Shown here piece after piece: positions 4,714-31,391 of a stretch of DNA of 35,360 nucleotides. Source of the DNA: Thermoprotei archaeon (GTDB lineage: Archaea > Thermoproteota > Thermoprotei_A > Sulfolobales > Fervidicoccaceae). Each line of letters starts with the position of its first letter. Position 1 is the first letter of the stretch. The position numbers and the translations under genes were made by a program. The stretch covers positions 1 through 35,360 of the forward strand of contig JAEMPT010000082.1 of NCBI GenBank assembly GCA_022759165.1, in the 5' to 3' direction. Under the pieces are notes generated by a model. That model did not search any database. It saw only the letters and a program-made list of their open reading frames with translations, and was not told the DNA's origin.

Positions 4714-4840
4714 TTCATTCGCCGATTCCTGTAAAGGATGGTCTCCAGTTGTAATAATTATAAAATAGTTTCATTCACCCCTCTCCAGCTACTTTTTGTC
4801 AATCCAAACTTTTCTAATCAAAAGAGAAAATTTTCCATAG

Positions 4841-5557
4841 ATGGTACCTAGCGCTGAGGCGACGTATGTGGAGATTCGTCAGCAGCTGGCAAAGCAAAGT
4901 TGCATCAAAATAGGAATCCCTACTATTGATCATCTAGCAGGATGTCTCCCGGGTGGGGCTATCTCCGAAATATATGGAGATTTTGATTTGATACTGCATG
5001 CCTCATATATAGCTGTGGCGAGCCTCCATTGTCGCGGCGGCGCAGCCTTAGGTATAGTGCAAGATAACCAGATGACCTATGACCTATACGCTGTGCGGAC
5101 GTTTCTGAGGATTATGGGATGCTCAGAGGATGGACTGTTGATTTCTAGAGCATTCAAAATAGAAGATGCTGTTGAGATGATTAAGGAAGCTATTTCGATT
5201 CCAGCCGAGAACTTAGTGATCTTCGACCCATATGTTCACTCTCCATTGCAACCAAAGGAATATTGGAGACTAACTCCACTAACGGCTGCTTTAAGGAAGG
5301 CTATGGTAAGTGGGAAGAGAATTGTTCTACTAAACCGGGTCACGAAGTTCGGTAGGTTTCTTCCGGAGGGAGGCAAAATGCACCACCACGCGATATCTGT
5401 AATAATTAAGCTCGAAAGGAATGGCAAGAAAAGCTACAGAGCTTTCTTAGTGAAGCATCCGAGTAAACCGGAAGCTTCTGCTTCAGGCTCGATAAGGGAA
5501 CTATATGAGGTGAGCCGAGAATGGGGAGGACAGTACCTTCTACTAGAATGGCTGTAG
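4841..5557 (+). CDS. RadA/RecA-fold paralogue with a destroyed Walker A motif (predicted inactive ATPase)
   Basis: The N-terminus IGIPTIDHLAGCLPGGAISEIYGDFDLILHASYIAV aligns to the RadA-paralogue pattern TGIxxLDxLLGGGLPxGxxxxIxGxxGxGKTxL. The GxGKT box is replaced by DFDLILHA, so there is no Lys/Thr. A Walker-B-like strand ENLVIFDP is retained. This is the first gene of the PolB2 module. Confidence 0.6.
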   Translation: MVPSAEATYVEIRQQLAKQSCIKIGIPTIDHLAGCLPGGAISEIYGDFDLILHASYIAVASLHCRGGAALGIVQDNQMTYDLYAVRTFLRIMGCSEDGLLISRAFKIEDAVEMIKEAISIPAENLVIFDPYVHSPLQPKEYWRLTPLTAALRKAMVSGKRIVLLNRVTKFGRFLPEGGKMHHHAISVIIKLERNGKKSYRAFLVKHPSKPEASASGSIRELYEVSREWGGQYLLLEWL

Positions 5558-5775
5558 AATCTGAAGTAGATAGGATAAGGAAGTTGATGGATTATATTCA
5601 TGACCGTGAGCTGAAGAGGGCATTCGAGGAGATAATCGATAGCTATGCGGATATAGCCCCCGTTTTCAGGGCGGTGCCCCCATATGATAAGGCTTACGCT
5701 ATAGTTCTTGCCGGTTTAGCGAGGGCTCTGAAGAGGATAGATGAAATTGAGCGGAAGGTGGACTCTGGACGCTAG
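5548..5775 (+). CDS. Small (75 aa) predicted all-helical protein, middle gene of the PolB2 module
   Basis: ORF 5521..5775. The ATG at 5548 (MAVESEVDRIRKLMDY...) overlaps the upstream stop (5555-5557) by 10 nt. Composition is charged and helical, with no motif I recognise. Coding status rests on position and tight coupling between two recognisable genes. Confidence 0.45.
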   Translation: MAVESEVDRIRKLMDYIHDRELKRAFEEIIDSYADIAPVFRAVPPYDKAYAIVLAGLARALKRIDEIERKVDSGR

Positions 5776-5791
5776 ATTCCTCAGGGGAAAG

Positions 5792-7432
5792 ATGAGGTTA
5801 CTCCAACTTGATAGCGAGGGTAAGCTGGAGGTAAGAGAGTTAAAAAGCAGCTATCCTTTTTACTTTGATCCCTTGAAGCATAGCGCAGAGGAAATGAGTC
5901 GCTCTCTCATAGAGACCCCATTCGTCGTAGAGGTCTCGATAGAAGATTGGCTGATGCCACCTTGGTATGACTCTCGGAAGGAGCTCGTGAAGGTAGAAGT
6001 TGACTGTGCGCCTTGCTTCAAAAAAATAGCTAGAAGGATCGAGAGCATGGGAATCGCCAAGAGGCTCAACCTCCAGCCATCGAGCGAATCATTGGCGCTC
6101 ATGAGAATGGGGATAACAATGTTGGATTGGGAGGGGAAAGATCCATGGAGACTTGAGTTCGACTTCCCCCCTCTCAGGGTCATGCAAATCAAAGACATCA
6201 GCCCTGATGATGCTCTTATAGCTTCCTCGGAGCTGACTACAAGCGGAGTAATTGACAGGAATATCGAAAAAATTAGAAAAGAAAAGATTGGTTCGCAAGC
6301 CGTAGGAGAATTTACAGAGGGTCATCACATTGCTCTCATAGAAAGCAGATGGGTCACTTGTGAAGAAGTTTATGCGCCCGTCTGCATAGAAGAGCATGGC
6401 AACCCGGTCGAAGACTTGATAGGACTAATGGAGCTTTCCAGGCTTTCATATTCTAACCTGGACGAAACTGCCGAGAAAAGCATAGGGAAGATTCTAACGG
6501 ACATAGAGGCAATGGAGGCAGTTAACAGGAGAATGGCCGTTCCCCAAGCTAGATTGAGGGGCGATGCTTGGAGGGGGATAGAAGAGCTCTTAGAGGGAGA
6601 TAGCGGTGGCCTTGTCGGGCTTCCGAGACCAGGCATATACGAAAACGTCCTGCAGCTGGATTTCTCCAGTCTATACCCTACTATAATAGCGAAGTTCAAC
6701 ATATCGCCTGAAACCATCAACAGACCAAATTGCGAGAGAAGCCTAAGACCGCCCGGGAGCATGCATGAGATATGCATGGACATCGATGGACTTGTGGCGA
6801 GCACGCTAAAGAGGCTAGTAGATAGGAGGGAAAAGATTAGGTCGATGAACGGCTGGATGAATTCTAGGAGGGAAAAAGCGCTCAAGTGGATAATGGTGGC
6901 CAGCTTTGGATACCTTGGCTACAGAAATTCTCGCTTCGGCAGCGTCCCAGCATATGAGAGTGTTGTATCCATAGCGAGGGAGCTGATGAGGAAAGCTATC
7001 GTCGTTGCTTCCCAGGCCGGTTACGAAGTGATCCATTTTATAGTAGACAGCATATTCGCGTGGAAGCAAGGAAAGAGATTTTCCGAGAATGAGGCGGTTG
7101 AGCTCAAAGATATGATCGAAAGATCCACCGGGATGAAGATAAAGTTTGAAAATGTGTTCAGATACCTTGTAATACCGAGAACAGAAGCAACGGTGAGGAG
7201 GGGGGCCCCAAATAGATACTATGGGGTGACGAGCGAGGGCAGATTGATCGTGAAGGGTGTGAAGTGTCCAGAAATCGATGGGACCTTTATACCGAGGGAC
7301 TTAGAGAATGCGGTCCTCCAGGTCCTCTTATTAAACGAGCACCCGAGGAGATTATGCTTCCAGCTTTCATCTCTACTTAATAAAAGCGATATATCGAAGG
7401 AAGCGATGCAGAAAAATACGATCAGCCTATGA
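5792..7432 (+). CDS. polB2: Family B DNA polymerase, PolB2 (Dpo2)-like, no exonuclease motifs, altered motif C
   Basis: Motif A LQLDFSSLYPTII is intact. Motif B-like is KWIMVASFGYLGY. The motif C position reads VIHFIVDSIF against the consensus VIYGDTDSxF, so the first Asp is replaced by Ile and the second Asp is kept. A KxY-like segment NRYYGVTSEGRLIVKGV is present. No DxE (Exo I), Exo II or Exo III was recognisable. Length is 547-563 aa versus ~780 aa for canonical archaeal PolB. Start is ATG 5792 (16 nt after the small ORF stop, preceded by AGGGGAAAG) or ATG 5741. Confidence 0.8.
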   Translation: MRLLQLDSEGKLEVRELKSSYPFYFDPLKHSAEEMSRSLIETPFVVEVSIEDWLMPPWYDSRKELVKVEVDCAPCFKKIARRIESMGIAKRLNLQPSSESLALMRMGITMLDWEGKDPWRLEFDFPPLRVMQIKDISPDDALIASSELTTSGVIDRNIEKIRKEKIGSQAVGEFTEGHHIALIESRWVTCEEVYAPVCIEEHGNPVEDLIGLMELSRLSYSNLDETAEKSIGKILTDIEAMEAVNRRMAVPQARLRGDAWRGIEELLEGDSGGLVGLPRPGIYENVLQLDFSSLYPTIIAKFNISPETINRPNCERSLRPPGSMHEICMDIDGLVASTLKRLVDRREKIRSMNGWMNSRREKALKWIMVASFGYLGYRNSRFGSVPAYESVVSIARELMRKAIVVASQAGYEVIHFIVDSIFAWKQGKRFSENEAVELKDMIERSTGMKIKFENVFRYLVIPRTEATVRRGAPNRYYGVTSEGRLIVKGVKCPEIDGTFIPRDLENAVLQVLLLNEHPRRLCFQLSSLLNKSDISKEAMQKNTISL

Positions 7433-8225
7433 GAACTGTTGCCCCCCTAGAGAGCCTAGATATCGATGCTCTCCCCTGCTTCTTTATATAATCTGAAGCC
7501 TCTGCATTTAGCTTCATTAGATAGGGGCTACATGTAGTAGAGGAGGGGAGCAACAGGTATTCTTTCCCTTCCCCAGGAAATAGCGGTAGCGATGAAGGTC
7601 TATCACCGCTCTGAGCTGACGCGTATATCGCATTCGATGCTCTTATGATGGCTTTGGCTCCTGCCTCGCTTTCTCCCGCATATATTAAGGAAAGACCTTC
7701 TATCATATCGTAGATCGAGCTCTTAGGTGCTATGATTTCCAAGGTTTTCGGCTCCCTATAGAGAACTGCCACCCTAAGTGCTTCATGCGGATAAAAGTAT
7801 CTGAGCAATGCAGGGGCCTTCTCTCCTATCGAGTATATATTCATGCCTCCCAGCAATGATGAAGCTAGAATAGCCTTGAGCTCTTGCGGAGCATTAAGTT
7901 CATTGACGATGTTAACTTCTCTTTTTAAAGCGTAAAACGAGGACAATATGGCAGCGATCGAGCACGAAATGCAATCTTCTCTCTCCAAAGGCTTTCTCGG
8001 GAAGAATAGCTGAGCCCTACCTAGTCCAAACATGCTCAATATCTTTTCTATTTCGTCATTCGATTGTGCGCAACTACATTTAAGGGTAAGCTTAAGGCCT
8101 GTACCTTCATTTATTGCCTCAGATGTATATTCTTCCCCTTCGATCGCCAGTAAGAATATCAGGCGAGAATCGTCTGCCCTTAACCGGGAAATGATCATCT
8201 CAGGAACCGTGGCAATTGCTCTCAT
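7422..8225 (-). CDS. Hypothetical protein, possibly a degenerate GHMP-kinase-fold (archaeal shikimate/pantoate-kinase-like) protein
   Basis: 267-aa ORF convergent with polB2; the 3' ends overlap by 11 nt. The segment PLEREDCISCSIAAILSSFYALKRE sits where GHMP kinases carry PxGSGLGSSAA followed by a helix. A later LLLPSSTTCSPYLM sits where motif 3 (GxGxGPS) would be. The assignment comes from remembered patterns only. Confidence 0.4.
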   Translation of the reverse strand: MRAIATVPEMIISRLRADDSRLIFLLAIEGEEYTSEAINEGTGLKLTLKCSCAQSNDEIEKILSMFGLGRAQLFFPRKPLEREDCISCSIAAILSSFYALKREVNIVNELNAPQELKAILASSLLGGMNIYSIGEKAPALLRYFYPHEALRVAVLYREPKTLEIIAPKSSIYDMIEGLSLIYAGESEAGAKAIIRASNAIYASAQSGDRPSSLPLFPGEGKEYLLLPSSTTCSPYLMKLNAEASDYIKKQGRASISRLSRGATVLIG

Positions 8226-8428
8226 ATTCTTACCTCAAGGTTTTAGTTCGGAAATCCCTTGTGACCTCTGAATTAACTGAAGAAGTTATGGGCTATTCGT
8301 CCTCTTTTAATTTATTTCTTTTACTAGCATTTTTTTAATTGGCTAGGGTTAAAGAACGTTTTAGCTCGTCGATGAGCAGGAGTTTTTATTTCAGGCCCTT
8401 CAAATGCAAAGATCAGCGAAGGTGGAAT

Positions 8429-9130
8429 ATGCCTCAAATTTACGTGGGAACCAGCGGTTGGACTTACGACTGGAACGAGGGTGGTAGTTTCGACTGGTAT
8501 TCATCTTACTCAGGCCTCAACGCTGTCGAGTTGAATGCTAGCTTTTATAGATTTCCATTCCCTTCGCAAATCTCAGGGTGGAGGAAAAAAGGGGCTAATA
8601 TGAGGTGGTCAGTGAAGGTCAACAGGTTAATAACGCATATTAGAAGGCTTAGCCCTTTGTCGCTACAAACTTGGGAAAAGTTCAGAAGATTATTTACTGC
8701 GATGGACGAAGTCATCGATTTCTTCTTATTCCAGATGCCTCCAAATTTTTCATGCAATCGTGAGGCTCTTGAGAAAATAGAATTATTCGAAAAATCGGCA
8801 AAGCTTGGAAATAGAATGGCAATAGAATTCAGAAACTCCTCGTGCTTTAACGAAGAGGTGGTCAATTGGGCCGAAAAAATCGGTATAACCCTAGTCTCAG
8901 TTGATAGCCCACAAATTTCTTGGTTTATCAAGACAGGTAAAATAATTTACGTCAGGTTGCATGGTAGAAGTGATTGGTATATCCATCGATATACGGAAAA
9001 AGAGCTTGAAGAGATAGCCGAAAAATCTCTTTCACTGCACCCTGAGAAACTCTACGTTTTTTTCAATAATGACCACTGGATGCTAGACAATGCAAGGATG
9101 CTTCTCGAAATATTGAGGAAGAAAACCTAG
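8429..9130 (+). CDS. DUF72 (YecE-like) family protein
   Basis: MPQIYVGTSGWTYDWNEG...FY is the typical DUF72 N-terminus (IGTSGWxYxxW). The ORF track starts at TTG 8339, but the family normally begins at this motif, so ATG 8429 is preferred. Confidence 0.8.
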   Translation: MPQIYVGTSGWTYDWNEGGSFDWYSSYSGLNAVELNASFYRFPFPSQISGWRKKGANMRWSVKVNRLITHIRRLSPLSLQTWEKFRRLFTAMDEVIDFFLFQMPPNFSCNREALEKIELFEKSAKLGNRMAIEFRNSSCFNEEVVNWAEKIGITLVSVDSPQISWFIKTGKIIYVRLHGRSDWYIHRYTEKELEEIAEKSLSLHPEKLYVFFNNDHWMLDNARMLLEILRKKT

Positions 9131-16968: not shown

Positions 16969-17982
16969 TTGAAGGCTACTCTTATAATAATAGCTCTCAT
17001 ACTAATAGCGGTTATCACCTCTGCTGCGGTCTTGTATATCAATTCAGGAAGTAAAAGCGGTAATGTAGCTGGAAGTAACTACAGGTTCGTCACAGACGCT
17101 CTAGGTAGAAACGTAACGGTCCCCTTGGACGTCTCTAGAATCGTTGTCCTAGACCAAGGCTCGGCAGAAATAGTTTATTCCGTTGGAGCTGGTAACCTTA
17201 TTGTCGGAAGGCTTGACTCAATGAACTTTCCTCCAAGCATATTGAATGCGACAGCCCTCACGTATACCAACGGGGTAGATTTGGAGCAGCTTGCCTCCTT
17301 GCATCCAGATCTCATTATTACATACATAAGAAGCCAGCAGGAGCTACAAAGCTATGAGACCCATAACTTTACAGTCATAGGCGTTCCGTGGACAAATAGC
17401 ATTGAAGATATTTATAACACGATAAGCCTAATAGGAAAGGCGCTTGGCAGAGAAAGCAGGGCGAATTACGTAATATCTTTCTTGAACGAAACAGTGAACA
17501 ATATAACCTCTATGGTTTCCTCCTCGAAAGAAAGACCTAGAGTGCTATTCATCAGAACTATCGGGACTACTGGTATACAGGTAGTAACGCAGGGGATCGA
17601 AAATCAACTTATAGAATTGGCCGGAGGGGTAAGCCTGAGCAATGGGTTATCCAAAAACACGAGCACTGTTTTCATAAATTATGAAGATTTAGTTAAAATG
17701 AACCCTGACATCATAATCCTTAGCTATAGAGTATCGCAAAGCGTGAATGATATATTAAACGATTCGAGGCTTCAGGACGTCAATGCTGTAAAGAACGGAT
17801 ATATCTTCAAGGCATCAAAGGAGTATACCCCAACGAGTCCTAGGTTTGTCCTCCTCTTGGCATACATGGCAAAATGCATACATCCAAACGAAACCTCCAA
17901 TTTGAACATAAGCAGCCTGCGAATTCAGCTTTATAAGAATATATATGGATTAAGCGATAGCGAGATATCACAGATCAAATAG
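16969..17982 (+). CDS. ABC importer substrate-binding protein, Fe-siderophore/cobalamin (cluster A-2, PF01497-like)
   Basis: N-terminal membrane anchor. RIVVLDQGSAEIVYSVGAG, LHPDLIITY and MNPDIIILS are typical of FecB/BtuF-type binding proteins. TTG start. Confidence 0.8.
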   Translation: MKATLIIIALILIAVITSAAVLYINSGSKSGNVAGSNYRFVTDALGRNVTVPLDVSRIVVLDQGSAEIVYSVGAGNLIVGRLDSMNFPPSILNATALTYTNGVDLEQLASLHPDLIITYIRSQQELQSYETHNFTVIGVPWTNSIEDIYNTISLIGKALGRESRANYVISFLNETVNNITSMVSSSKERPRVLFIRTIGTTGIQVVTQGIENQLIELAGGVSLSNGLSKNTSTVFINYEDLVKMNPDIIILSYRVSQSVNDILNDSRLQDVNAVKNGYIFKASKEYTPTSPRFVLLLAYMAKCIHPNETSNLNISSLRIQLYKNIYGLSDSEISQIK

Positions 17983-18008
17983 GAGAAGCTCTTGAAGATG
18001 ATCCGAGA

Positions 18009-19013
18009 ATGAAGGAGGATGGCAAGATAGCTATCGCTGCGGTCGCAACTTTTTTTATTTTCATAATAACTCTTGGAATGGGCAAATATGAATTTTCACC
18101 GATAGGCTCTTTAAAAATTCTAATTGAATCGCTCGCAGGAAAGGCTCCCAATGGAGATCCGCTGGCAAATATAGTATTACAGATAAGGCTTCCTCGTGTA
18201 TTAGCCGCTTTGCTAGTTGGGGCATCTCTATCGGTCTCAGGAGCCGGATTTCAGGCATTATTTAGAAACCCCCTCGTTAGCCCAGACATACTTGGAGTGC
18301 TTGCAGGGGCAGGATTCGGCGCATCGCTTGCGATACTCCTAAATTTTCCACTTCCTTTTGTACAGGCAGTAGCCTTCGGGATTGGATTAGCGGCATTGGG
18401 ATTATCTTATACAGTTGCGTGGAGGGGGGGAGGAGCAAGAATCGTTGACTTAGTGCTCTCAGGTATAATAATAGGAAGTCTTTTCAAAAGCCTTATGAGC
18501 CTAGTTAAGTTCCTAGCTGACCCTGAGTCCAAATTACCACAGATAACCTACTGGCTAATGGGCGGTCTCGCATCGTCAAGTTGGGGGGACGTTGAAATTC
18601 TAGCGCTGATTTCTGTACCTTCTATCGCTATGCTATATTTGCTTAGATGGAGACTGGATGCATTCATGTTGGGAGAGGAAGAGGCAAAAGCTCTTGGAAT
18701 AAAGGTCGAATTTTATAAAGCAGCTGTGATCGTACTTTCAACGCTTCCAGCTGCAGCTAGCACGGTTGTCGCGGGATTGGTAGGATGGATTGGACTAGTT
18801 ATTCCTCACATGGCTCGAATGATTTTCGGAGATTCAAATAGATTCACTGTGCCAGGATCCGCCATAATAGGAGGAGCATTTCTGCTGGTAGTAGATACTA
18901 TATCACGGGCAGTGCTCCCGAGCGAGCTCCCCCTAGAAGTCCTCACATCCTTCGTTGGCGTTCCATTCTTCGCATACTTGCTTAGGAGGAGGGTTTACCA
19001 TGGATGGAGCTGA
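18009..19013 (+). CDS. FecCD/BtuC-family ABC permease
   Basis: RLPRVLAALLVGASLSVSGAGFQALFRNPLVSPDILGV is the FecCD signature region. The C-terminal end reads GVPFFAYLLRR. Confidence 0.85.
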   Translation: MKEDGKIAIAAVATFFIFIITLGMGKYEFSPIGSLKILIESLAGKAPNGDPLANIVLQIRLPRVLAALLVGASLSVSGAGFQALFRNPLVSPDILGVLAGAGFGASLAILLNFPLPFVQAVAFGIGLAALGLSYTVAWRGGGARIVDLVLSGIIIGSLFKSLMSLVKFLADPESKLPQITYWLMGGLASSSWGDVEILALISVPSIAMLYLLRWRLDAFMLGEEEAKALGIKVEFYKAAVIVLSTLPAAASTVVAGLVGWIGLVIPHMARMIFGDSNRFTVPGSAIIGGAFLLVVDTISRAVLPSELPLEVLTSFVGVPFFAYLLRRRVYHGWS

Positions 19014-19794
19014 GCTGAAAGTTGAGGGGGTAAGCTATTCATATGGTCGCGATGACTTTTCATTGAAAAATATTAGCTTGTCTTTGAAAGGAGGGGAAAT
19101 ATTAGCTCTGCTTGGCCCGAATGGCTCAGGGAAAACCACTTTAACCAAGATCGTTCTCGGCATTTTAAAGCCTCACCCACCCTCTGTCACAGTTGGTGGG
19201 GTCAATTTATTCGAAGTAACTGAAAAGGAGAGAGCTAAGCTAATTGCCTGGGTACCGCAAGAAATAATGAAAAACGTCCCCCTCAGAGTAGAGGATTTCG
19301 TTTTATTAGGAAGGACCCCCCATATCTCTCCGCTATCAATCCCTTCAGATTTGGATAGAAAGCTTGTAGCAGAAGCCTTAAGGAAGTTCGGGCTGGAGAT
19401 CTTGGCGAAGAGGTATTTTTCTCAACTTAGCGGGGGAGAGAGGAGATTAGCGAGTATCGCCAGGGCTTACGTTCAGGGCACCCCATTTATGGTTTTGGAT
19501 GAACCGACTGCCTACCTCGATTTCAAGAACAAGTTGTTGGCCTTGAAAGTTATGAAGGAGCTAGCGCAGGAGGGTAGGGGGATCCTCTTCACCACGCACG
19601 ACCCCAATGAAGCTGTAGAAATTGCAGACCAGGTAGTTTTGATGTATAGAGGCGAAATCCTGATATCTGGAAATCCTGATGAGGTCATAAATGAAGAGAC
19701 TCTGGAAAAAGTGTATGGTATTAAGGTTAAAATTGTTAGGAGCAATGGTAGAGCTTACGTTACCCCATCTATAGGACAACATATAGAGGCTTGA
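19000..19794 (+). CDS. ABC importer ATPase (FepC/BtuD-like)
   Basis: Walker A GPNGSGKTT, Q-loop WVPQE, signature LSGGERR, Walker B MVLDEPTAYLD, H-loop TTHD. ATG 19000 (MDGAELKVEG...) overlaps the permease stop. The 18955 start in the ORF track is an in-frame read-through of the permease 3' end. Confidence 0.9.
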   Translation: MDGAELKVEGVSYSYGRDDFSLKNISLSLKGGEILALLGPNGSGKTTLTKIVLGILKPHPPSVTVGGVNLFEVTEKERAKLIAWVPQEIMKNVPLRVEDFVLLGRTPHISPLSIPSDLDRKLVAEALRKFGLEILAKRYFSQLSGGERRLASIARAYVQGTPFMVLDEPTAYLDFKNKLLALKVMKELAQEGRGILFTTHDPNEAVEIADQVVLMYRGEILISGNPDEVINEETLEKVYGIKVKIVRSNGRAYVTPSIGQHIEA

Positions 19795-19920
19795 CTTGTT
19801 GTAGCCTTTCTTTAGGGCCTCTATTGAAGATTTGAGATATTGCTCTAAAAAGCTACAGGAATGCAGATTTATGTTGCTTATAGAAAAGTTTATATATAAA
19901 ATTCTGGTTATTAAAACCAG

Positions 19921-21093
19921 GTGGTTCGCTTGGAATTACAGCAAAAAATCATATTTTCACTGCTCGTTGTAGCTCTAATATTATCAATGGCTTCATTGAT
20001 ATTTGTCTATGAATCCAACAATTCGTTTAAGGTCATCGAAGGCACGCTGCAAAATTTAAGCAATTCCGTAGCGGGCTTTCAAAAGATGTCTTCATCGTTA
20101 CAGAACATAAACTCAACCTTATCAGAGAAAATCAATGAAATTTCGGCTCAGATAAACGAGCTTAAGTTCCCGATACAGGTATATGACGCATTAAACAGGA
20201 CCGTTTTCATTACGCAACAACCGGAGAGGGTGGTTTCGATCGCCCCAAGCATAACGGAGATCCTCTTCGCGATAAATGCTAGCTCATTGGTTGTAGGAGT
20301 CGATGACTTTTCCAACTATCCCCCTATCTTAGAAAAAATGGTAGCCAACGGAACCATCGCAAGAGTAGGAGGATTTTCTGACATAAGCCTTGAGAAGGTA
20401 GTCTCTCTTAAACCAGACCTAGTCATAGGTACAACGGGAGTTCAATATAAATTCATCTACCAACTTTCCCAGATGGGAATTGACTCTATATCGTTGAGGA
20501 CAGAGAGCATAGATGATATCTTTTCTGCGACATTGCTTTTGGGGAAAATAACTGGTCACTATAATGAGGCAGTTGTACTCGTTAACGACCTTAAGCAAAA
20601 AATAATGAACATCTATGAAACGGTTTCCACGAGGACTACAGAGAGACCCTCTGTAGCCTATATTGTATGGATAAGCCCACTGTTTGTTGCGGGAGGGAGC
20701 AGCTTCTGGAACGATGCGATAAACCTCGCTGGAGGCGTCAATGCTTTCCAGAATGTCACTCAGGCTTGGCCGATGGTCTCTTGGGAGGATTTAGTGAAAG
20801 CAAACCCTGACTTCATTATATTATCCGAAAACGCAGGGGGATTTTCGAATGCCTCTCAATTTATCATTTGGGCTAAAAATCAGCCAGGAGGGGACAGTTT
20901 GAACGCAATAAAAAATGGAAGAGTATACATGCTTCATGGTGAGCTGAACGACATCGCTTCCAGACCAGGACCGAGAATAGCTGAACTTCAGCTGTCTATT
21001 TCGCTAATACTGCACCCAGACATATATGGAAAAGCGATCGTTCCTCAAGATCTGGACCTCGGTACCGTGATGAACCTTACAGCACAGAGGTGA
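19921..21093 (+). CDS. Second Fe-siderophore/cobalamin-type substrate-binding protein with an extended N-terminal linker
   Basis: TM anchor, then a ~60-aa Ser/Asn/Gln-rich helical stretch (NNSFKVIEGTLQNLSNSVAGFQKMSSSLQNINSTLSEKINEISAQINEL). The binding-protein core follows (RVVSIAPSITEILFAINA, LKPDLVIGT, ANPDFIILS). GTG start follows a TATA-like AAAGTTTATATATAAAA. Confidence 0.75.
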   Translation: MVRLELQQKIIFSLLVVALILSMASLIFVYESNNSFKVIEGTLQNLSNSVAGFQKMSSSLQNINSTLSEKINEISAQINELKFPIQVYDALNRTVFITQQPERVVSIAPSITEILFAINASSLVVGVDDFSNYPPILEKMVANGTIARVGGFSDISLEKVVSLKPDLVIGTTGVQYKFIYQLSQMGIDSISLRTESIDDIFSATLLLGKITGHYNEAVVLVNDLKQKIMNIYETVSTRTTERPSVAYIVWISPLFVAGGSSFWNDAINLAGGVNAFQNVTQAWPMVSWEDLVKANPDFIILSENAGGFSNASQFIIWAKNQPGGDSLNAIKNGRVYMLHGELNDIASRPGPRIAELQLSISLILHPDIYGKAIVPQDLDLGTVMNLTAQR

Positions 21094-21103
21094 GCTCCCT
21101 TCT

Positions 21104-22093
21104 TTGCTTTCTTCGGTTGAAGATTATGTAGAAAAAAAGAGGAAGAGGCTTAAGCTGCTGATCTTGACCGCTCTTTTTTCTTTAGTTCCCGTTTTTTGGC
21201 TAAGCTTATACTTAGGATCATCTGGTCCGCTTCCTATGTGGAGGTGGCACTTAGATGACCCTATATTTCAGCTGAGAATTTACAGGACTCTGACTGCCTT
21301 TTTTTCGGCCGCTTCTTTGGCTCTAAATGGTTTACTGCTCCAGAATCTCCTCGCTAACCCTTTGATAGACTCAAGCATACTCGGGATTTCTTCTGGGTCT
21401 ACACTGGGCATGCTTACGGGCTACATAATATCGGCTAAGCTAGGGCTTTATATTGCTCCAATCGTTTCTCTCATTTTCTCTCTAGCTACTATGATGCTGG
21501 TTTATGGACTTAGCAAAATGGGTGGGTTCAGGATACTTGTTGTTGCGTTATCTGGTGTCATGGTATCAACGATGCTTACCTCGATATCTTATCTATTAAT
21601 TTTAGTCAATCCGGCAATTTCAAAGGGTGGTGTAGCCTTAGTACTGGGGAGCTTAGGATATTCTGACACCTGGAGCGTATACCTAAGCCTAGCGAGCTTT
21701 TCTGTTGTAGCTGGCCATCAAATGCTCAGAGTAGGGAACATTAGGAAGATCCTATTAGGAGAGGATCTCGCAAGAGCTTCTGGCATAAACGTGGAGCGTA
21801 TCAGGAAGGAGAGCCTAATAGTTTCTAGCCTTAGCATATCGCTAGTGACTCTCTCTGTAGGACCAATTGGCTTTATTGGACTGATAATACCGCATATTTC
21901 AAGAATAGCTGTAGGCGGAGATCCTGGTGCCTGCTCGATAACCTCGACGCTTTGGGGACCGGTGCTACTAATTTGTGCGGACATAGTCTCCAGGGTAGCA
22001 TTCATGCCGTCCGAGCTTCCAGTTGGGATTACTATGAGCATTATAGGCGCTCCATTCTTCCTCTTCCTCCTGATAAAGAGCATGAGGCGATAG
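21104..22093 (+). CDS. Second FecCD/BtuC-family ABC permease
   Basis: RIYRTLTAFFSAASLALNGLLLQNLLANPLIDSSILGIS and C-terminal GAPFFLFLLIK. TTG start 10 nt after the binding-protein stop. Confidence 0.85.
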   Translation: MLSSVEDYVEKKRKRLKLLILTALFSLVPVFWLSLYLGSSGPLPMWRWHLDDPIFQLRIYRTLTAFFSAASLALNGLLLQNLLANPLIDSSILGISSGSTLGMLTGYIISAKLGLYIAPIVSLIFSLATMMLVYGLSKMGGFRILVVALSGVMVSTMLTSISYLLILVNPAISKGGVALVLGSLGYSDTWSVYLSLASFSVVAGHQMLRVGNIRKILLGEDLARASGINVERIRKESLIVSSLSISLVTLSVGPIGFIGLIIPHISRIAVGGDPGACSITSTLWGPVLLICADIVSRVAFMPSELPVGITMSIIGAPFFLFLLIKSMRR

Positions 22094-22095
22094 CT

Positions 22096-22842
22096 GTGCC
22101 AGAGGTTGTGCTTAGAGGCTCAATAGGATACTCGTTCCCCCTATACAGAAACTTGCACATCGAGCTGCGCTCAGGATACTTATATTGTGTTCTTGGACCC
22201 AACGGGTCTGGCAAAAGTACTTTGCTGAAGACCTTGTCTGGATCGATCCCCGTTTTCGAGGGGTCCCTTGAAAAAATCCCTCATGATTCTGCTTCCTCCT
22301 ATCTTCCTCCGGATCCCCCGGAGTTGCCTGGAATGAGGGGAGGGGATGCCGCGCTTTCGTTTTTAGCTACAAATGAAAAAAGGCTACTATATGGCAATTG
22401 GCGTAGCGAACAATCGCTTGAAAGGTTAGTGAGATATATTGAGGAATTCAGCTCCCCAGTAGACTTGGAGAAGTATTTCAATGAGCTTAGCACCGGAGAA
22501 AGGATGAAAATACTGTTGGCCTCTGCTCTCGCTTCTGAGGCCGATTTTCTTTTTTTAGATGAACCGAGCGGCCATTTAGACGTAAGGTCTAGAATCTTGC
22601 TATACAGAATTCTAAAAAGGGAAAAAGAGAGCAGGTTAATTGTCCTTAGCATGCATGAGCTTTCTGAAGCATCCTCAGCTTGCGACAAAGGAATACTCTT
22701 AGGTGCAGGGAATTTTTACGGTCCCTCGGACATAGGTTCGATACTCAACGAGGATTTGCTCAGTTTAGCCTACGGTGCCAGGTTCAAGAAGGTCCTTATA
22801 GACGGAAAGCCCTTGCTCGTTCCCTATGATATAAAAGAATGA
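22096..22842 (+). CDS. Second ABC ATPase, divergent (no Q-loop Gln recognisable)
   Basis: Walker A GPNGSGKSTL, signature LSTGERM, Walker B LFLDEPSGHLD, H-loop SMHE. The expected Q-loop position reads SYLPPDPPE. The ORF track start (21952) lies inside the permease gene. GTG 22096, directly after the permease stop, is the most economical start (alternative GTG 22108). Confidence 0.75.
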   Translation: MPEVVLRGSIGYSFPLYRNLHIELRSGYLYCVLGPNGSGKSTLLKTLSGSIPVFEGSLEKIPHDSASSYLPPDPPELPGMRGGDAALSFLATNEKRLLYGNWRSEQSLERLVRYIEEFSSPVDLEKYFNELSTGERMKILLASALASEADFLFLDEPSGHLDVRSRILLYRILKREKESRLIVLSMHELSEASSACDKGILLGAGNFYGPSDIGSILNEDLLSLAYGARFKKVLIDGKPLLVPYDIKE

Positions 22843-24875: not shown

Positions 24876-25280
24876 TCAATCGATATCTGAAGATATTGAA
24901 CAGAACGAGGAAGTTTTTATTCCATGCAATTTAGATATGGAGGTCATCAAATGCTTTATTCTCTCAGCGTCTCCCTTTACAGCTATGATCAGCATGCAGT
25001 TTTTTTCTGTAAGATGGATGTGGAGCGCTGAGATAATGACGTCCATAAATTCATGCTGTATGTCGGTGATCTTCTCTTCCAGTCCGTGAACATCGTGGTT
25101 ATAATGAATTGCGATCGCGCCCGCAACCTTGCCTTCGCTCGATATCCACTTCGTGTTAACGATATACATTTCAGCGGCCCTTTGCAATAGGGAGGAACGA
25201 CTGATCCCCTCCGATCTCGATATTCTCTCCAATTCCTCGAGAAGATGTTTTGGAAAGGAAACTGAGAATCGCGCGCTCAA
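24876..25280 (-). CDS. nikR: Nickel-responsive transcriptional regulator NikR
   Basis: N-terminal ribbon-helix-helix (FSVSFPKHLLEELERISRSEGISRSSLLQRA). The C-terminal metal-binding domain has LHIHLTEKNCMLIIAVKG, matching the E. coli NikR H87-x-H89-x5-C95 site (LHVHINHDDCLEIAVLKG as I recall it), plus an upstream His in IQHEF. Confidence 0.85.
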   Translation of the reverse strand: MSARFSVSFPKHLLEELERISRSEGISRSSLLQRAAEMYIVNTKWISSEGKVAGAIAIHYNHDVHGLEEKITDIQHEFMDVIISALHIHLTEKNCMLIIAVKGDAERIKHLMTSISKLHGIKTSSFCSISSDID

Positions 25281-25299
25281 ATTTTATCCCCATCGCTCC

Positions 25300-25965
25300 T
25301 TATATTATAATCTTCCCATCCTTCATATAATAAGTTTCATCGCAGAGCACCTCAATTTCTTTGTCCTGCGTTGCTATCACGACTGCCCATTCCTCAGAGT
25401 TTTTGCTTGAAATGAATTCGTGCAACCTTTTCATCATTTTTTCCTTGTTTTCTTCGTCAAGATTGCTTGTGGGCTCGTCCAGTAGCAACAGCTCTGGTTC
25501 CGTCACGAGTACCGATGCAAGTGAAACGAGCCTTCTTTGACCAAAGCTGAGCCTATGTGGAATTCTATCTTTGAGCTGCTCCAATCCTAGTTTCTTCAAT
25601 TCTTCTTCTGCCTTTTCAGAGGATTTCTCTCTCGGGATTCCTCTAACGATGAGCCCGAATGCTACCTCTTCCAATACGTTGGGGTTGAACAGCATGTCAT
25701 CGGGGTTCTGGAACAAGAGCCCTATTTTCTTTCGGAGCTCGGGGGCATTGTTTTTTTCGACCCTCCTCCCGAAAAGCTCGACTTCTCCTGACTGGGGGAA
25801 AATTAGAGCGTCAAGCACCATGAGGAGAGTGCTTTTCCCCGAACCGTTCGGTCCCATCAAGCAGATGACGCTCTCTTTTTTTAAACCGAGGCTTACACCA
25901 TTGAGCGCCCTAGTACCATCGGGATATGTGTACGTTACATCTTTGAGCGTTGCTATCATTTCCAT
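25300..25965 (-). CDS. cbiO: ECF-type Ni/Co transporter ATPase (CbiO/NikO)
   Basis: Walker A GPNGSGKSTL, Q-loop LLFQNPDD, signature LSFGQRR, Walker B LLLDEPTSNLD. The H-loop position reads IATQD (Gln instead of His). It is short (221 aa). Confidence 0.85.
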   Translation of the reverse strand: MEMIATLKDVTYTYPDGTRALNGVSLGLKKESVICLMGPNGSGKSTLLMVLDALIFPQSGEVELFGRRVEKNNAPELRKKIGLLFQNPDDMLFNPNVLEEVAFGLIVRGIPREKSSEKAEEELKKLGLEQLKDRIPHRLSFGQRRLVSLASVLVTEPELLLLDEPTSNLDEENKEKMMKRLHEFISSKNSEEWAVVIATQDKEIEVLCDETYYMKDGKIII

Positions 25966-25991
25966 GATCTCACTCTTCTGAAAGAGATGAG

Positions 25992-26711
25992 CTAAATCTC
26001 TATAGCTATGAAAAAGGCTGCTAACAATATTGCTAAAATCAACATAGACGTCTTCGTGATTTTGCTTCTCTTTATGCCGACATTACCTCCACCTCTTGAA
26101 ATGAAGGCCATGTTCATCCTTTCCCCCCTCTCATATCCTCTGACCAACTGGTATCCGAAAAAGTAACCCAAATCCTTTAGCCTTAACTTCGGTACCCCCC
26201 TTGAAAGAAATGCCAAGGATGAGCTCCATATGAATCTTGCCATCGATATAGCGTCAATCGATGTCATCATCATTAGATACGCGAAACCTTCAGGAATTCT
26301 AATTGAGGCAAGCCCATAGGATATGTAAGGCAATCCATAGCTCCTCGTTAGCAAAGAAGGTAATGATAGGGCCCCCCAAACTCTGAGCGTAAATACCACT
26401 GCCCCGTATAAGCCAAAGCCGGGGTCCCAAACAGCCCTTGGAAGAGCTATTGCTAAAGAGAAAAGGGGTATGAAAAAAAGGGAGCTCTTGATGAACCTGC
26501 TTAAGCTTTCCCCTATCGTTATTGCGAGCGCAAGCGATAACGATATAACGAATAATGGGAAGAAGGCTCCCTTCGATAGAACTACGAGGAATGGACAAGA
26601 TATCGCCAAAAAGGCAGCATCTGCCTCAGAAAATATTTTTCTCTTAGGCCTGTCAGCCAAATAAGAAAGCTCAATGAACTCTTCTAAGCCCTTAATTGCC
26701 TCCATCTTCAC
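25992..26711 (-). CDS. cbiQ: ECF transporter transmembrane (T) component CbiQ/NikQ
   Basis: Five or six TM segments. The C-terminal coupling-helix region ERGERMNMAFISRGG matches the CbiQ AxxxRG motif. Its operon position lies between the small subunit and the ATPase. Confidence 0.75.
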   Translation of the reverse strand: MKMEAIKGLEEFIELSYLADRPKRKIFSEADAAFLAISCPFLVVLSKGAFFPLFVISLSLALAITIGESLSRFIKSSLFFIPLFSLAIALPRAVWDPGFGLYGAVVFTLRVWGALSLPSLLTRSYGLPYISYGLASIRIPEGFAYLMMMTSIDAISMARFIWSSSLAFLSRGVPKLRLKDLGYFFGYQLVRGYERGERMNMAFISRGGGNVGIKRSKITKTSMLILAILLAAFFIAIEI

Positions 26712-26973
26712 CGACCTTCATCAGGAGCCTAATTATAGCGAAAACGATGATCCCTCCCACTAAGCCGCTGATGATACCCCCTGCCCAACATGGAAATCCG
26801 GGGATTGTGTACTCTGGAAAAGGTGAGCCTAGGAGGTTTTCACCCGTCAAATTCATTCTTTCAGCTACTTCATCGAGCGGTTCATAGGAAACAGATAAGA
26901 CTGTAGATCCAATTACTATCGCTACTGCGGAAAAAACGGCCAGGGCGAGATATATTTTCTTCATTGAGCTCAC
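26692..26973 (-). CDS. Small two-TM PDGLE-domain-like accessory subunit (NikL/CbiN analogue)
   Basis: 93 aa with an N-terminal TM, the extracytoplasmic segment SYEPLDEVAERM (resembling the PDGLE motif) and a C-terminal TM (GGIISGLVGGIIVFAII). Its stop overlaps the nikM region and it sits in the slot occupied by CbiN/NikN/NikL. Confidence 0.6.
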   Translation of the reverse strand: MSSMKKIYLALAVFSAVAIVIGSTVLSVSYEPLDEVAERMNLTGENLLGSPFPEYTIPGFPCWAGGIISGLVGGIIVFAIIRLLMKVGEDGGN

Positions 26974-27608
26974 CTCGAAAATAGCTCCGGCTTATATTTA
27001 CCGAAAGCATATACTGCGAATCCCGTTATAACGCCCTCAACTAAGCCGAGCACCGCGTGCGAAATTCCCATAACGGGTATAGTGATATTTAGGCCATAGC
27101 CGAAAGTTGCCCTCGAAAGACCTAGTTCAAGTCCACACAGGAGCGCTGCTGAAACTATCCCGAGCCAGCCAGCCAAGCCTCCTGAAATCACCCTTCCTTT
27201 CTCTCCCTTGAATGCCCTTCTGAAGAGAAGATAGGAATAAAACGATACGAGAGAGGCTGTTATTGCCATGTTGAGCGTGTTTGCCCCGTAGGTTGTTATA
27301 CCTCCATCCCCGAAAAGAAGGGCCTGTATGAACAGAATTACGGATAGCCCTACTATACCAGCATCTGGACCAAATATTATTGCTAGCATTGGAGTTCCAA
27401 TAAGATGGCCGGTTGTACCTCCCGGTCCAAGTGGATAGTTAACCATTTGCAGGGCAAAAACTGTGGCGGTTAAGGCGCTGAATAGGGGGACCTCCATCTT
27501 TCCCATTTTCCTCTTCAGCCTGATGTAGGCAAAAGCGATAATAGGGAGCGAAATTGCGTAGCAAGTCAGCCAAACTTTATTGCTTAGGTAGCCGTCTGGA
27601 ATATGCAT
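26970..27608 (-). CDS. cbiM: Ni/Co ECF transporter substrate-capture component CbiM/NikM
   Basis: Family proteins begin MHIxDG because the N-terminal amine and His2 ligate the metal. The ORF track begins at GTG 27617 (MVLMHIPDGYLS), but ATG 27608 gives the canonical MHIPDGYLS N-terminus. Seven TM segments. Confidence 0.9.
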   Translation of the reverse strand: MHIPDGYLSNKVWLTCYAISLPIIAFAYIRLKRKMGKMEVPLFSALTATVFALQMVNYPLGPGGTTGHLIGTPMLAIIFGPDAGIVGLSVILFIQALLFGDGGITTYGANTLNMAITASLVSFYSYLLFRRAFKGEKGRVISGGLAGWLGIVSAALLCGLELGLSRATFGYGLNITIPVMGISHAVLGLVEGVITGFAVYAFGKYKPELFSR

Positions 27609-27779
27609 GAGGACCACGGTGTTACTTTTTTAAATTTTTTTCACACAAAGACGGTATTTAAGTCATCCGATCAACCTTAATGCTTATGCCTTTCAAAAAT
27701 TGGATTCTTAGGATAAAGGCAGCGGATATTTGCCTGTATCCCGCCATTAAAAGTTGATCTATCAACATAAATCGCATGA

Positions 27780-30024: not shown

Positions 30025-30579
30025 TTAACTCTTCCAAAGGTCGGTCATCTTCTTTCTCTTCATTCTCCTAGCTTCCCTTTCGAGGAACGAGTAAACCACC
30101 GCATGTGGCTTTCCTTCAATGAGCATCCTTATAGCCTCGCTCGCAACCTTGACCTGCTCGAAGTCTCCTATTATCCCAACTGCTTTATCACCTATTATCA
30201 CGTTGGTCCCTGTCGTCTCCTCGATTATCTTCCTCGTTCTCCCATCCTCTCCTATTATTCTTCCCTTTATCCTCTTCAAGTGGTTCTCTCCTTCTATAAT
30301 TGAGCCAAGGTCTATTACTTCGAGGACTTGGTCGTCCTCGAGAAGCCTTAAGGCTTGTTCAGGCGAGAAGCCTAGAGCGATTGCTCTTATTATATCTCTC
30401 GCCTTGAGGAGAGAGTAAGAAGCAACGCTCTCCGACGCTGGCTCTATAGTTACTGTGCCGGTGGAGCTGTCCACCGCAATAATTGTGCCGGTGGAAACCT
30501 CGATTCTCTCCTTGGTGCTTCCACCAGGCCCGATCAGAACACCGATTCTTTCTGGAGGCACGAGCTCAAATATCCTCAT
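30025..30579 (-). CDS. Two-KH-domain RNA-binding protein (archaeal Dim2/Pno1 homologue)
   Basis: KH GxxG loops in VLIGPGGSTKERIE and IIGEDGRTRKIIEETTG. The gene order aIF1A-Rio1-KH is conserved in archaea. ATG 30579 (MRIFELVPPE...) overlaps the Rio1 TGA as ATGA. The 30612 start would overlap Rio1 by 37 nt. Confidence 0.8.
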   Translation of the reverse strand: MRIFELVPPERIGVLIGPGGSTKERIEVSTGTIIAVDSSTGTVTIEPASESVASYSLLKARDIIRAIALGFSPEQALRLLEDDQVLEVIDLGSIIEGENHLKRIKGRIIGEDGRTRKIIEETTGTNVIIGDKAVGIIGDFEQVKVASEAIRMLIEGKPHAVVYSFLEREARRMKRKKMTDLWKS

Positions 30580-31391
30580 TGCCCCCGTCCTCTTTTCTCC
30601 TCCCTCAGGCATCTAAGCAACTCCTCCAGCAAGGTATCTCCGTAAACTTCTATGTTATATGTCCTGTTAAAGAACCTATCTATATTCGAGATGTCCTTTC
30701 TGAGGAATTCTTCTGAATTAGGGTGCGTTGTTAGCACCGACTGAGAGACGTCTATGAAGACTGGCTTTCCGCGGAACACCATTATGTTGTATTCACTGAG
30801 ATCAGCATGAACAAGACTTGCTCTGCATATCATCTTTCTGAGGCCTTCGGCTATCTCATCATAAATTGACCTGGGATCATCCAAGCTTTCCCCCACCTCT
30901 TTTAGGAGTGGGGCCCTAACTCCTTCTTCACCGATGAACTCCATGACCACTATGTTGTCTTTATAGCCTATGGGTTCTGGCACACTAACTCTGGCAGAAT
31001 ACATCCTCTTCAAATTAGAATATTCCTTCTTGGCCCATAAGCTCATAAGCTTCTTAGTGGTAGTAGCCTTCGCGTTCTCGAATCTTTCGTCTCCCATAAC
31101 ATATTTGTATATTCCTTTCTTGAATTCCGCGGAAAATGTAAGATAAATTTTTATTGCCAGCTCTCTCCCGCTTTCATTTATACCTCTGTAAATCCTGGCC
31201 TCCTTCCCTGAACTAACGACGCCTCCGATCCTCTTAATGCCTAGTCTTCGAGCCAGCTCATATAATGAACGCACGGTAAACGAATCGAAGACTTCCTCGA
31301 CGGTTTTAAGGAGATCGTAGTCTTTTTCTCTTTCTTCCTCTTTTTCCGTCAACTTCTTATTGAGCTTTCTCTCTAGCTCGTCCTCTCCCAA
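30576..31391 (-). CDS. rio1: RIO-type serine/threonine protein kinase (Rio1-like)
   Basis: N-terminal RIO winged-helix region. ATP-binding Lys in ELAIKIY. Catalytic loop LVHADLSEYNIMV. Metal-binding FIDVSQSV. Confidence 0.9.
   Translation of the reverse strand: MGEDELERKLNKKLTEKEEEREKDYDLLKTVEEVFDSFTVRSLYELARRLGIKRIGGVVSSGKEARIYRGINESGRELAIKIYLTFSAEFKKGIYKYVMGDERFENAKATTTKKLMSLWAKKEYSNLKRMYSARVSVPEPIGYKDNIVVMEFIGEEGVRAPLLKEVGESLDDPRSIYDEIAEGLRKMICRASLVHADLSEYNIMVFRGKPVFIDVSQSVLTTHPNSEEFLRKDISNIDRFFNRTYNIEVYGDTLLEELLRCLREEKRGRGQ

Follow-up and report, generated by a model that had tools for sequence, protein, structure and literature searches.

In Archaea, genes for the family B DNA polymerase PolB2 were placed by Makarova, Krupovic and Koonin (2014) in a predicted operon with arCOG07300 and inactivated RadA-family genes, and Timinskas et al. 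(2025) named these partners PPB2 and iRadA (PMC11791011). A PolB2:iRadA:PPB2 heteropentamer of 1:1:3 stoichiometry, the 'mutasome', was modeled in the latter study at high confidence in 40 species (PMC11791011). Here, we analyze a 35,360-nt stretch of DNA from a Fervidicoccaceae archaeon (contig JAEMPT010000082.1, hereafter the window) and, within it, three plus-strand open reading frames (ORFs) between positions 4841 and 7432. We conclude that these are most probably a chromosomal iRadA-PPB2-PolB2 operon (class 1a), with a damage-induced extender complex as its proposed function. The operon is a further orthologue of the described system, which is already known and for which Fervidicoccus representatives have been catalogued.

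In the published models, one N-terminal MGRT arm of PPB2 lies within the cleft between PolB2 and iRadA, a PolB2 loop mimics the oligomerization motif of Rad51, and clamp-binding motifs are found mostly on iRadA (PMC11791011). Genes for DUF72, SRAP and orc1/cdc6 are enriched near polB2 (PMC11791011). In Sulfolobus islandicus, the PolB2 polymerase Dpo2 is the only damage-inducible polymerase; it raises survival with mutagenesis as the cost, and is solely responsible for targeted mutagenesis (PMC7390963). Purified Dpo2 is a robust polymerase without exonuclease activity, which inserts poorly opposite lesions and extends mismatched or lesion-opposed termini efficiently (PMC8764526). A first-pass annotation of the window, made from the sequence alone, had given the 2014 operon statement accurately and had mentioned a link between Sulfolobus Dpo2 and damage-inducible, error-prone tolerance. 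For S. islandicus Dpo2, the role of a damage-inducible translesion extender without exonuclease has been demonstrated by genetics and biochemistry (PMC7390963, PMC8764526).

Profile, motif and synteny comparisons show that each of the three genes in the window is a member of one of the families by which the archaeal PolB2 mutasome is defined. With the Dpo2/PPB2/iRadA mutasome of S. islandicus the locus shares, beyond the families themselves, an exonuclease-free polymerase with an xxD motif C, a PPB2 armed with MGRT, an iRadA without P-loop and N-terminal domain, and a promoter motif of the DNA-damage response element (DDRE) type. It differs in having a polymerase thumb shorter by 45-100 aa, D-S in place of D-K, and an iRadA tail resembling a PCNA-interacting peptide (PIP). 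The window polymerase is about 30% identical to Sulfolobales Dpo2, and in the Sulfolobales locus examined (L075) PolB2 directly follows PPB2 and no iRadA precedes the pair, whereas the order in the window is iRadA-PPB2-PolB2. Fervidicoccus operons have been tabulated as class 1a with an IVD motif C and a DUF72 neighbor (PMC11791011), all of which recur here. Because operons of the same class, motif and neighbor had already been tabulated, the finding is real but not new. The first-pass annotation had called the trio the strongest candidate for an uncharacterized system, with no established mechanism; that reading was right on identity and outdated on novelty, since both the operon class and a modeled complex had been published.

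Homologues of all three ORFs occur in other genomes, the closest labeled Fervidicoccaceae at 53-66% identity, and we therefore regard all three as real Fervidicoccaceae genes. A 127-nt spacer (4714-4840) separates the first ORF from an upstream Na/Ca-exchanger gene, and a convergent ORF (7422-8225, minus strand) shares 11 nt with the 3' end of the polymerase gene. The spacer, the AT-rich stretch within it and the convergent gene had all been noted previously, as had three tightly coupled same-strand ORFs; the coordinates and the arithmetic of that description (intervals of 10, 16 and 35 nt) are correct for the start codons it considered.

The arrangement is widespread. We scanned 80 loci encoding polymerase relatives (81 with the window), in records labeled Fervidicoccaceae, Desulfurococcales, Acidilobaceae/Caldisphaera, Thermoproteota and Nitrososphaeria/'Geothermarchaeota'. 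In 40 of the 81 (the window and 39 other loci), the 3' end of an iRadA-homologous ORF meets the start of an MGR[TS] ORF that adjoins PolB2; hmmsearch E values of the iRadA homologues were 1e-14 to 1e-133. The remaining loci have PPB2-PolB2 without an upstream iRadA, or divergent arrangements, in agreement with published operon variants. The same trio, with its internal structure kept, is found in five further Fervidicoccaceae loci (L001 and L081-L084). The predicted synteny in related genomes is thus borne out by the 39 other scan loci plus L081-L084, and gene order across these records shows that the trio has been inherited together in many lineages.

The flanks of the trio vary. Its upstream neighbors are CstA and an ArsA-type ATPase in L081 and L082, a different set in L084, and window-like in L001 and L083, which suggests that the module has relocated as a unit. 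Such differences, together with the horizontal transfers suggested by the PolB2 phylogeny (PMC11791011), would fit a self-replicating module that brings its own polymerase and travels as cargo of a mobile element or virus. This is highly implausible for the locus at hand. An integrase, terminal repeats and tRNAs were looked for and none was found in the window; the housekeeping genes on either side are in synteny with those of L001 and L083; a candidate damage-response element of host type is present in the promoter; and PolB2 is distinct from casposon and protein-primed PolBs (Makarova 2014). The remainder of the window reads as ordinary archaeal chromosome, with genes for glutamate dehydrogenase, transporters, an H+-PPase, ABCE1, Rio1, aIF1A, NMD3, aIF2-beta and a Nog1-type GTPase. 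We rejected the mobile-element reading on the syntenic flanks and on the lack of any tRNA or integrase in the window.

The first gene (4841-5557, plus strand, as are the other two; 238 aa) encodes iRadA, a homologue of the RadA/Rad51 ATPase core without N-terminal domain and Walker A P-loop. Searches with the single sequence failed to establish this: Pfam gave no match, the match to the RadB C-terminal model in NCBIfam was weak (E = 0.005, far below the cut-off), and the PDB returned RecA at an E value of about 0.7. A family profile was therefore needed. Built from 33 family members taken from syntenic loci, it matched the RadA core of Pyrococcus furiosus (5jed_A) with an E value of 3.7e-11 over profile positions 5-204, nearly its full length, and also matched Rad51/DMC1 (1e-6 to 1e-8) and RecA. 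The P-loop of RecA, GPESSGKT, aligns to G-DFDLIL in the window protein, and the family reads G-D-x-x-x-x without GK[ST]. Walker A (GxxxxGK[ST]) was found at the homologous site in 0 of 40 members; two regular-expression matches sit elsewhere, at non-homologous positions. iRadA thus resembles RadA, RadB and Rad51 in its RecA-type ATPase core, to which it is confined, but lacks the ATP-binding loop of the RadA/RadB recombinases and their N-terminal helix-hairpin-helix/polymerization domain; the family has about 230 aa and ends in a PIP-like tail. The first-pass description of this gene as a RadA paralogue lacking a P-loop was accurate. An HMMER search of representatives with a narrow iRadA profile returned only 52 clusters, a count that shows a fast-evolving family.

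At the C terminus of iRadA lies a PIP-box-like motif, QYLLLEWL (5531-5554), which follows the pattern Qxx[LIM]xx[FYW][FYWL]. The tail Q..L.EWL is unchanged in six Fervidicoccaceae homologues. Among the 40 family members, 21 carry the full PIP-like pattern and 35 its hydrophobic half. Clamp-binding motifs have been described at this end of iRadA (PMC11791011).

The second ORF ends at 5775 and has in-frame ATGs at 5521 and 5548. It had been given as a 75-aa protein starting at ATG 5548; we place the start at ATG 5521 because of MGRT conservation, a ribosome-binding site and the gene calls in relatives. PPB2 (arCOG07300 family) then spans 5521-5775, has 84 aa, and begins MGRTVPSTR (MGRTVPSTRMAV), an N-terminal arm that includes the conserved Arg3 and Arg9. 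The MGRT arm is the most conserved feature of the PPB2 family (PMC11791011). It is unchanged in the four closest homologues, three of which are likewise 84 aa long from an MGRT start, and also in 58 PPB2 sequences from related loci. A Shine-Dalgarno-like GAGGTGA (5507-5513) precedes ATG 5521 at a distance of 7 nt, and direct reading of the sequence found nothing comparable ahead of ATG 5548. Independent gene calls in four Fervidicoccaceae contigs (L081-L084) give an 84-aa product with a 37-nt overlap with the upstream gene, which in the window replaces the 10-nt overlap reported before. Pfam held no family for the window PPB2, nor for 10 diverse members; a hidden Markov model (HMM) made from PPB2 of other lineages only recognized the window protein over its full length at 73.7 bits. 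An MGR[TS] small ORF stands beside PolB2 in 56 of the 80 loci, or in 55 when the ORF is limited to 60-115 aa.

The third ORF encodes PolB2, a Dpo2-type family B polymerase with a decayed exonuclease domain, intact palm and fingers, and a truncated thumb. It stops at 7432 and has in-frame ATGs at 5741 and 5792, both of which had been offered as starts. ATG 5741 stands and ATG 5792 falls, because residues W7 and L9-D10-A11, which align with the conserved N terminus of homologues (consensus M...W.LDA), lie upstream of ATG 5792 and because relatives keep a PolB2/PPB2 overlap of 29-35 nt, as in the window. The protein is thus 563 aa long (5741-7432).

Assignment to PolB2 rather than to PolB1 or PolB3 did not come from scores. 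Pfam DNA_pol_B matched at 1.2e-15, and NCBIfam was set aside for clade assignment: none of its models is specific to PolB2, bona fide Dpo2 likewise fails to reach any of the cut-offs, and the score pattern of the window protein is that of bona fide Dpo2. Our own HMMs were nearly tied on it (281 bits for Dpo2 and 274 for PolB3-like sequences), and the clade was therefore assigned by coverage, tree position and synteny. Alignments over 89-99% of the window protein were obtained with Fervidicoccus, Desulfurococcales-type and Sulfolobales 'DNA polymerase II' (Dpo2) proteins, whereas exonuclease-bearing PolB3-like proteins align with its polymerase half only, about 50% of its length. The Dpo2 HMM runs contiguously over residues 7-509; the PolB3-like HMM aligns in two fragments that skip residues 111-225, the exonuclease region. 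In a neighbor-joining tree, the window protein sits with Dpo2, apart from the exonuclease-bearing PolB3-like sequences. The earlier identification as PolB2 is upheld by both the full-length similarity and the tree.

The same protein had been said to be unable to proofread, and this also holds up. Pfam did not detect the exonuclease domain PF03104, and residues 111-225 are unalignable to the exonuclease part of the PolB3-like HMM and shorter by about 70 residues. The position aligned with Exo I reads MQIKD, if our assignment of it is right. An AlphaFold2 (AF2) model of PolB2, built on 26 sequences, was confident, with a predicted local distance difference test (pLDDT) score of 89.5 and a predicted template modeling (pTM) score of 0.88; only a small beta core is left in its exonuclease region. 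Foldseek matched this model to archaeal PolB structures from Thermococcus and Pyrococcus at E values of about 1e-26. The family B fold is common to the archaeal replicative polymerases PolB3 and PolB1 and to E. coli Pol II, but these enzymes possess an active PF03104 exonuclease, a motif C of the DxD type, a complete thumb and, as a rule, a C-terminal PIP motif of their own, and they are unlinked to iRadA and PPB2. Neither the intact 3'-5' exonuclease nor the DxD motif C that marks PolB3 and PolB1 is found in the window polymerase.

Whether PolB2 is an enzyme at all was once doubted. In the original reading of 2008-2014, PolB2 was 'inactivated', and the trio could then be a regulatory or structural complex, for instance for control of replication initiation or fork restart, as proposed by Makarova 2014. 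Several features of the window proteins are compatible with a dead polymerase: motif C reads I434-V435-D436 (within HFIVDSI; 7040-7048), so that the first Asp of DxD is replaced and D436 kept, the exonuclease domain has decayed, iRadA lacks its P-loop, and in the Fervidicoccales lineage the thumb is truncated as well. We nevertheless judge this improbable. Active S. islandicus Dpo2 has IID at motif C, the same xxD pattern (PMC11791011), the Dpo2 enzymes of S. islandicus and S. solfataricus with this motif are robust polymerases, and Dpo2 is needed for targeted mutagenesis. Motif A, DFSSLYP (6659-6679; catalytic D307, and Y312), and motif B, KW..ASFGYLGY, are invariant in the alignment, and with the KxY-type region and D436 they are invariant across all 26 PolB2 sequences, which argues for selection on catalysis. 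Nor does the window contain an orc1/cdc6 gene. Motif conservation and the activity of S. islandicus Dpo2 make it likely that the window PolB2 is catalytically competent.

The thumb sets this lineage apart. Only 57 aa follow the KG506 motif in the window PolB2 (residues 507-563, 7259-7432). Fervidicoccales-clade PolB2 have 42-69 residues after this motif, against 103-156 in all other PolB2 examined, and end 45-100 residues earlier than these. A phmmer alignment with the 774-residue KOD polymerase stops at KOD residue 655. Most of the thumb is therefore missing, and the C terminus carries no PIP or clamp motif.

A second distinctive element of PolB2 is the loop D275-G290 (DAWRGIEELLEGDSGG, 6563-6610), which corresponds to the beta-alpha segment predicted to bind iRadA and, after it, the conserved D of 'D(K/R)'. 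A role of this loop in iRadA binding has been predicted, and the 'D(K/R)' motif is predicted to contact the PPB2 arm (PMC11791011). Residues D287, G289 and G290 are invariant in the 26 PolB2 sequences. In the AF2 model, the loop has a helix at 280-286 and a pLDDT of 69-75, lower than the rest of the protein.

It bears on a further alternative, namely that the genes are co-transcribed without forming a single machine: PolB2 alone would be the translesion extender, and iRadA and PPB2 would have another role in the damage response, for example in the modulation of RadA filaments or of transcription (PPB2 is similar in fold to the N-terminal domain of a sigma factor). Isolated Dpo2 does work as an extender in vitro (PMC8764526), the complex is known from modeling only, and additional iRadA-PPB2 pairs that lack a polymerase are present in some haloarchaea (Makarova 2014). 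We give this alternative a small chance. Linkage of the three genes is tight and widespread, and their translational coupling is conserved; iRadA-PPB2 and PPB2-PolB2 fusions are reported, along with co-induction and the high-confidence multimer models in 40 species (PMC11791011); and no function in a polymerase acting alone is known for the conserved loop of PolB2 at D287.

Coupling is visible in the overlaps that join the trio, 37 nt between iRadA and PPB2 and 35 nt between PPB2 and PolB2. Read as gene structure, these show iRadA, PPB2 and PolB2 to be translationally coupled. The first overlap (5521-5557) is dual-coding: the iRadA frame ends ...WGGQYLLLEWL* and the PPB2 frame reads MGRTVPSTRMAV (M-G-R-T-V-P-S-T-R-M-A-V). 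It is present in 22 of 40 loci and, in an in-register form of 49 nt, in 4 more, across several orders. Codon geometry ties the two products together, in that the W of the iRadA tail is forced by the ATG-G of the PPB2 MGRT, and the Q of the PIP-like box derives from the Thr codon ACA of MGRT plus the next base. Nine loci have no iRadA/PPB2 overlap; most of them keep LLxW[LIV], and Q is absent from seven of the nine, being kept in L010 and L039.

Upstream of the trio, we aligned five Fervidicoccaceae promoters (window, L001, L081, L083 and L084). Four blocks stand out as conserved, namely AATA.TTTC (4764-4772), a C/T-rich box, TAC, and TTTT.TA (4810-4816). The first of these is invariant in all five; its version in the window, AATAGTTTC, agrees at every position with the initial nine bases of AATAGTTTCRGWDTACTCWS, the DDRE consensus in S. 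islandicus. With the C/T-rich box CCCCTCTCC that follows, it makes up a candidate damage-response element at 4764-4788. In S. islandicus, the ANTTTC-containing DDRE is bound by Orc1-2, and the induction of dpo2 requires Orc1-2 (PMC6061795).

The element extends beyond one family. We counted motifs on the coding strand in the 120 nt upstream of iRadA, in the 38 loci that have at least 100 nt there. A[CG]TTTC occurs in 23 of the 38, where 2.2 sites would be expected (about 10-fold), and 11 of them have the composite motif, in which the C/T-rich box is included, where the expected number is 0.26 (about 40-fold). PPB2-first loci carry the motif too, among them one Stygiolobus locus from the Sulfolobales, where the element was originally defined, and in divergent arrangements it appears in the opposite orientation. 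Conservation, enrichment and the match to the DDRE consensus point to a candidate Orc1-2-type damage-response element at 4764-4788. In the literature searched, the ANTTTC damage element is discussed for Sulfolobales only, and its occurrence outside that order may not have been described before. If the element is real, a DNA-damage regulon would extend across the sampled orders, with PolB2 as a core member.

The AT-rich stretch TAATAATTATAAAATA (4752-4767), which overlaps the DDRE-like motif and extends upstream of it, had been proposed as the TATA box. This is probably wrong, as the stretch is not conserved in L001, L081, L083 and L084. The block that is invariant in the five-way alignment, TTTT.TA, lies within a better candidate, CTTTTCTAAT (4809-4818), about 25-30 nt upstream of ATG 4841. 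This position fits the archaeal spacing between TATA box and transcription start site. With a TATA box there, the transcript would therefore be leaderless or have a very short leader.

Together with the published work, these features suggest how the complex would operate. By analogy with orthologues, DNA damage would induce transcription from the promoter with its Orc1-2-type element, and PolB2 would act as an active, non-proofreading polymerase that extends mispaired or lesion-opposed primer ends, a translesion extender similar to Pol zeta. If the published models apply, PolB2 would bind one iRadA through the loop that mimics the RadA/Rad51 oligomerization motif, and a trimer of PPB2, a predicted three-helix protein, would dock so that one MGRT arm (Arg3, Arg9) enters the PolB2-iRadA cleft beside the DNA. 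The pattern QYLLLEWL suggests that iRadA could tether the complex to PCNA, and such a tether may offset the truncated thumb and C terminus of PolB2.

Several points weigh against the extender-complex reading. A 2026 review describes the complex as still awaiting experimental verification (PMC13324097), and the 1:1:3 assembly, though likely, is a prediction by modeling. The AF2 model of iRadA was poor (pLDDT 55.8, from an alignment of 6 sequences), so that the top Foldseek matches obtained with this low-confidence model, RecA (3.4e-8) and RadA 2zub (5.7e-7), are weak support. The truncated thumb could mean that PolB2 activity is altered or weak. At D287-S288 (6599-6604), the 'D(K/R)' motif reads D-S, and close relatives have D-S or D-N; more distant clade members and all other PolB2 retain D-K or D-R. 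The DDRE-like motif lies 69-74 nt from the ATG, against 23-55 nt typical in Sulfolobus (PMC6061795), and the window lacks the orc1/cdc6 neighbor already mentioned. The PIP reading of the iRadA tail is a hypothesis built on pattern and conservation. In the HMM-based supplementary table of the mutasome study, the clamp-motif columns are blank for both iRadA and PolB2 of Fervidicoccus (PMC11791011). Part of the conservation of the tail (W-x-G-Q), and with it the canonical PIP look, may be a by-product of the MGRT codons. Either Q..L.EWL is a variant that escapes the published clamp-motif profile, or the tail is something other than a PIP box.

Translesion polymerase complexes with comparable features exist outside Archaea. 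The Pol V mutasome of E. coli (UmuD'2C-RecA-ATP) is likewise a damage-induced translesion polymerase assembled on one protomer of a RecA-family protein through a filament-mimicking motif, with the N-terminal arm of a small subunit near the active site and use of a sliding clamp (PMC11791011). However, its catalytic subunit belongs to the Y family, its RecA is an active recombinase, ATP is needed, its small subunit is an unrelated dimer rather than a trimer, and its clamp motif is on the polymerase. Eukaryotic Pol zeta (Rev3-Rev7(2)-Pol31-Pol32) is a multisubunit extender whose catalytic subunit belongs to the B family and has an inactivated proofreading domain, but its accessory subunits are unrelated (the HORMA protein Rev7 and the B and C subunits of Pol delta) and it has no recombinase-fold partner. 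To our knowledge, the PolB2 mutasome is the sole known multisubunit B-family translesion polymerase in prokaryotes, and in Sulfolobus it is the main source of damage-induced mutations.

The window holds no new kind of system; its value is that of a Fervidicoccaceae example with correct gene boundaries, in which PPB2 has 84 aa and both overlaps are defined. In the text of the mutasome study, neither overlap nor thumb, promoter or start codon is mentioned (PMC11791011). Three side observations, which may not have been described before, go with our example, namely the thumb-truncated PolB2 with a PIP-like iRadA tail, the dual-coding overlap, and the shared promoter element. For its grip on DNA, Fervidicoccales PolB2 may depend solely on iRadA, the arm of PPB2, and PCNA recruited by QYLLLEWL. 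The 37-nt dual coding could couple the translation, and also the evolution, of the iRadA tail and the PPB2 arm. That all of this adds up to a distinct sub-variant, which would join a thumb-less obligate holoenzyme, a dual-coded tail and arm, and a damage regulon shared across orders, is a tentative suggestion that we hold to be possible and somewhat doubtful as a whole. iRadA and PPB2 are accessory subunits known mainly from models, and the three observations are testable and could guide construct design and mutagenesis.

Several genes around the trio were considered as further components. The convergent ORF (7422-8225, minus strand) encodes a hypothetical protein of 267 aa, without a match in Pfam, NCBIfam or PDB, whose CxC...CxxC cysteines are kept in its L001 homologue (44% identity). 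A convergent gene of similar size lies 3' of the trio in L081-L083, even where the upstream context is another one. It is missing from L084 and from PolB2 loci outside Fervidicoccaceae. As its conservation is limited to Fervidicoccaceae, we rejected it as a general component of the system.

About 1 kb downstream of the trio is a DUF72 gene (8339-9130, plus strand; Pfam DUF72, 6.8e-44), a neighbor outside the trio whose probable true start is ATG 8429. DUF72 is a TIM-barrel family related to UV-damage endonuclease (PMC11791011). Such a gene is found near the trio in the window, L001 and L083, adjacent in the last. DUF72 was rejected as a general neighbor, since the 80 genome-scan loci and the window together yielded it just twice, in the window and in L001. 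In L001, a Sir2/CobB deacylase gene separates the trio from DUF72, and one lies 3' of the convergent gene in L081 and L082.

Farther away, 23 kb from the operon, is a Rio1-type kinase gene (30576-31391, minus strand). Work on S. islandicus has connected Rio1 with the UV response. Its cluster in the window is one of ribosome biogenesis and translation genes (a KH protein, aIF1A, NMD3, aIF2-beta, a Nog1-type GTPase and ABCE1), and its co-location with the PolB2 operon is probably coincidence. Among the transporters, two tandem paralogous FecCD-type ABC-transporter sets, each with periplasmic binding protein, permease and ATPase, occupy 16969-22842 (plus strand), and near them lies a CbiM/ECF cobalt or nickel uptake cluster with a NikR-like regulator (24876-27617).

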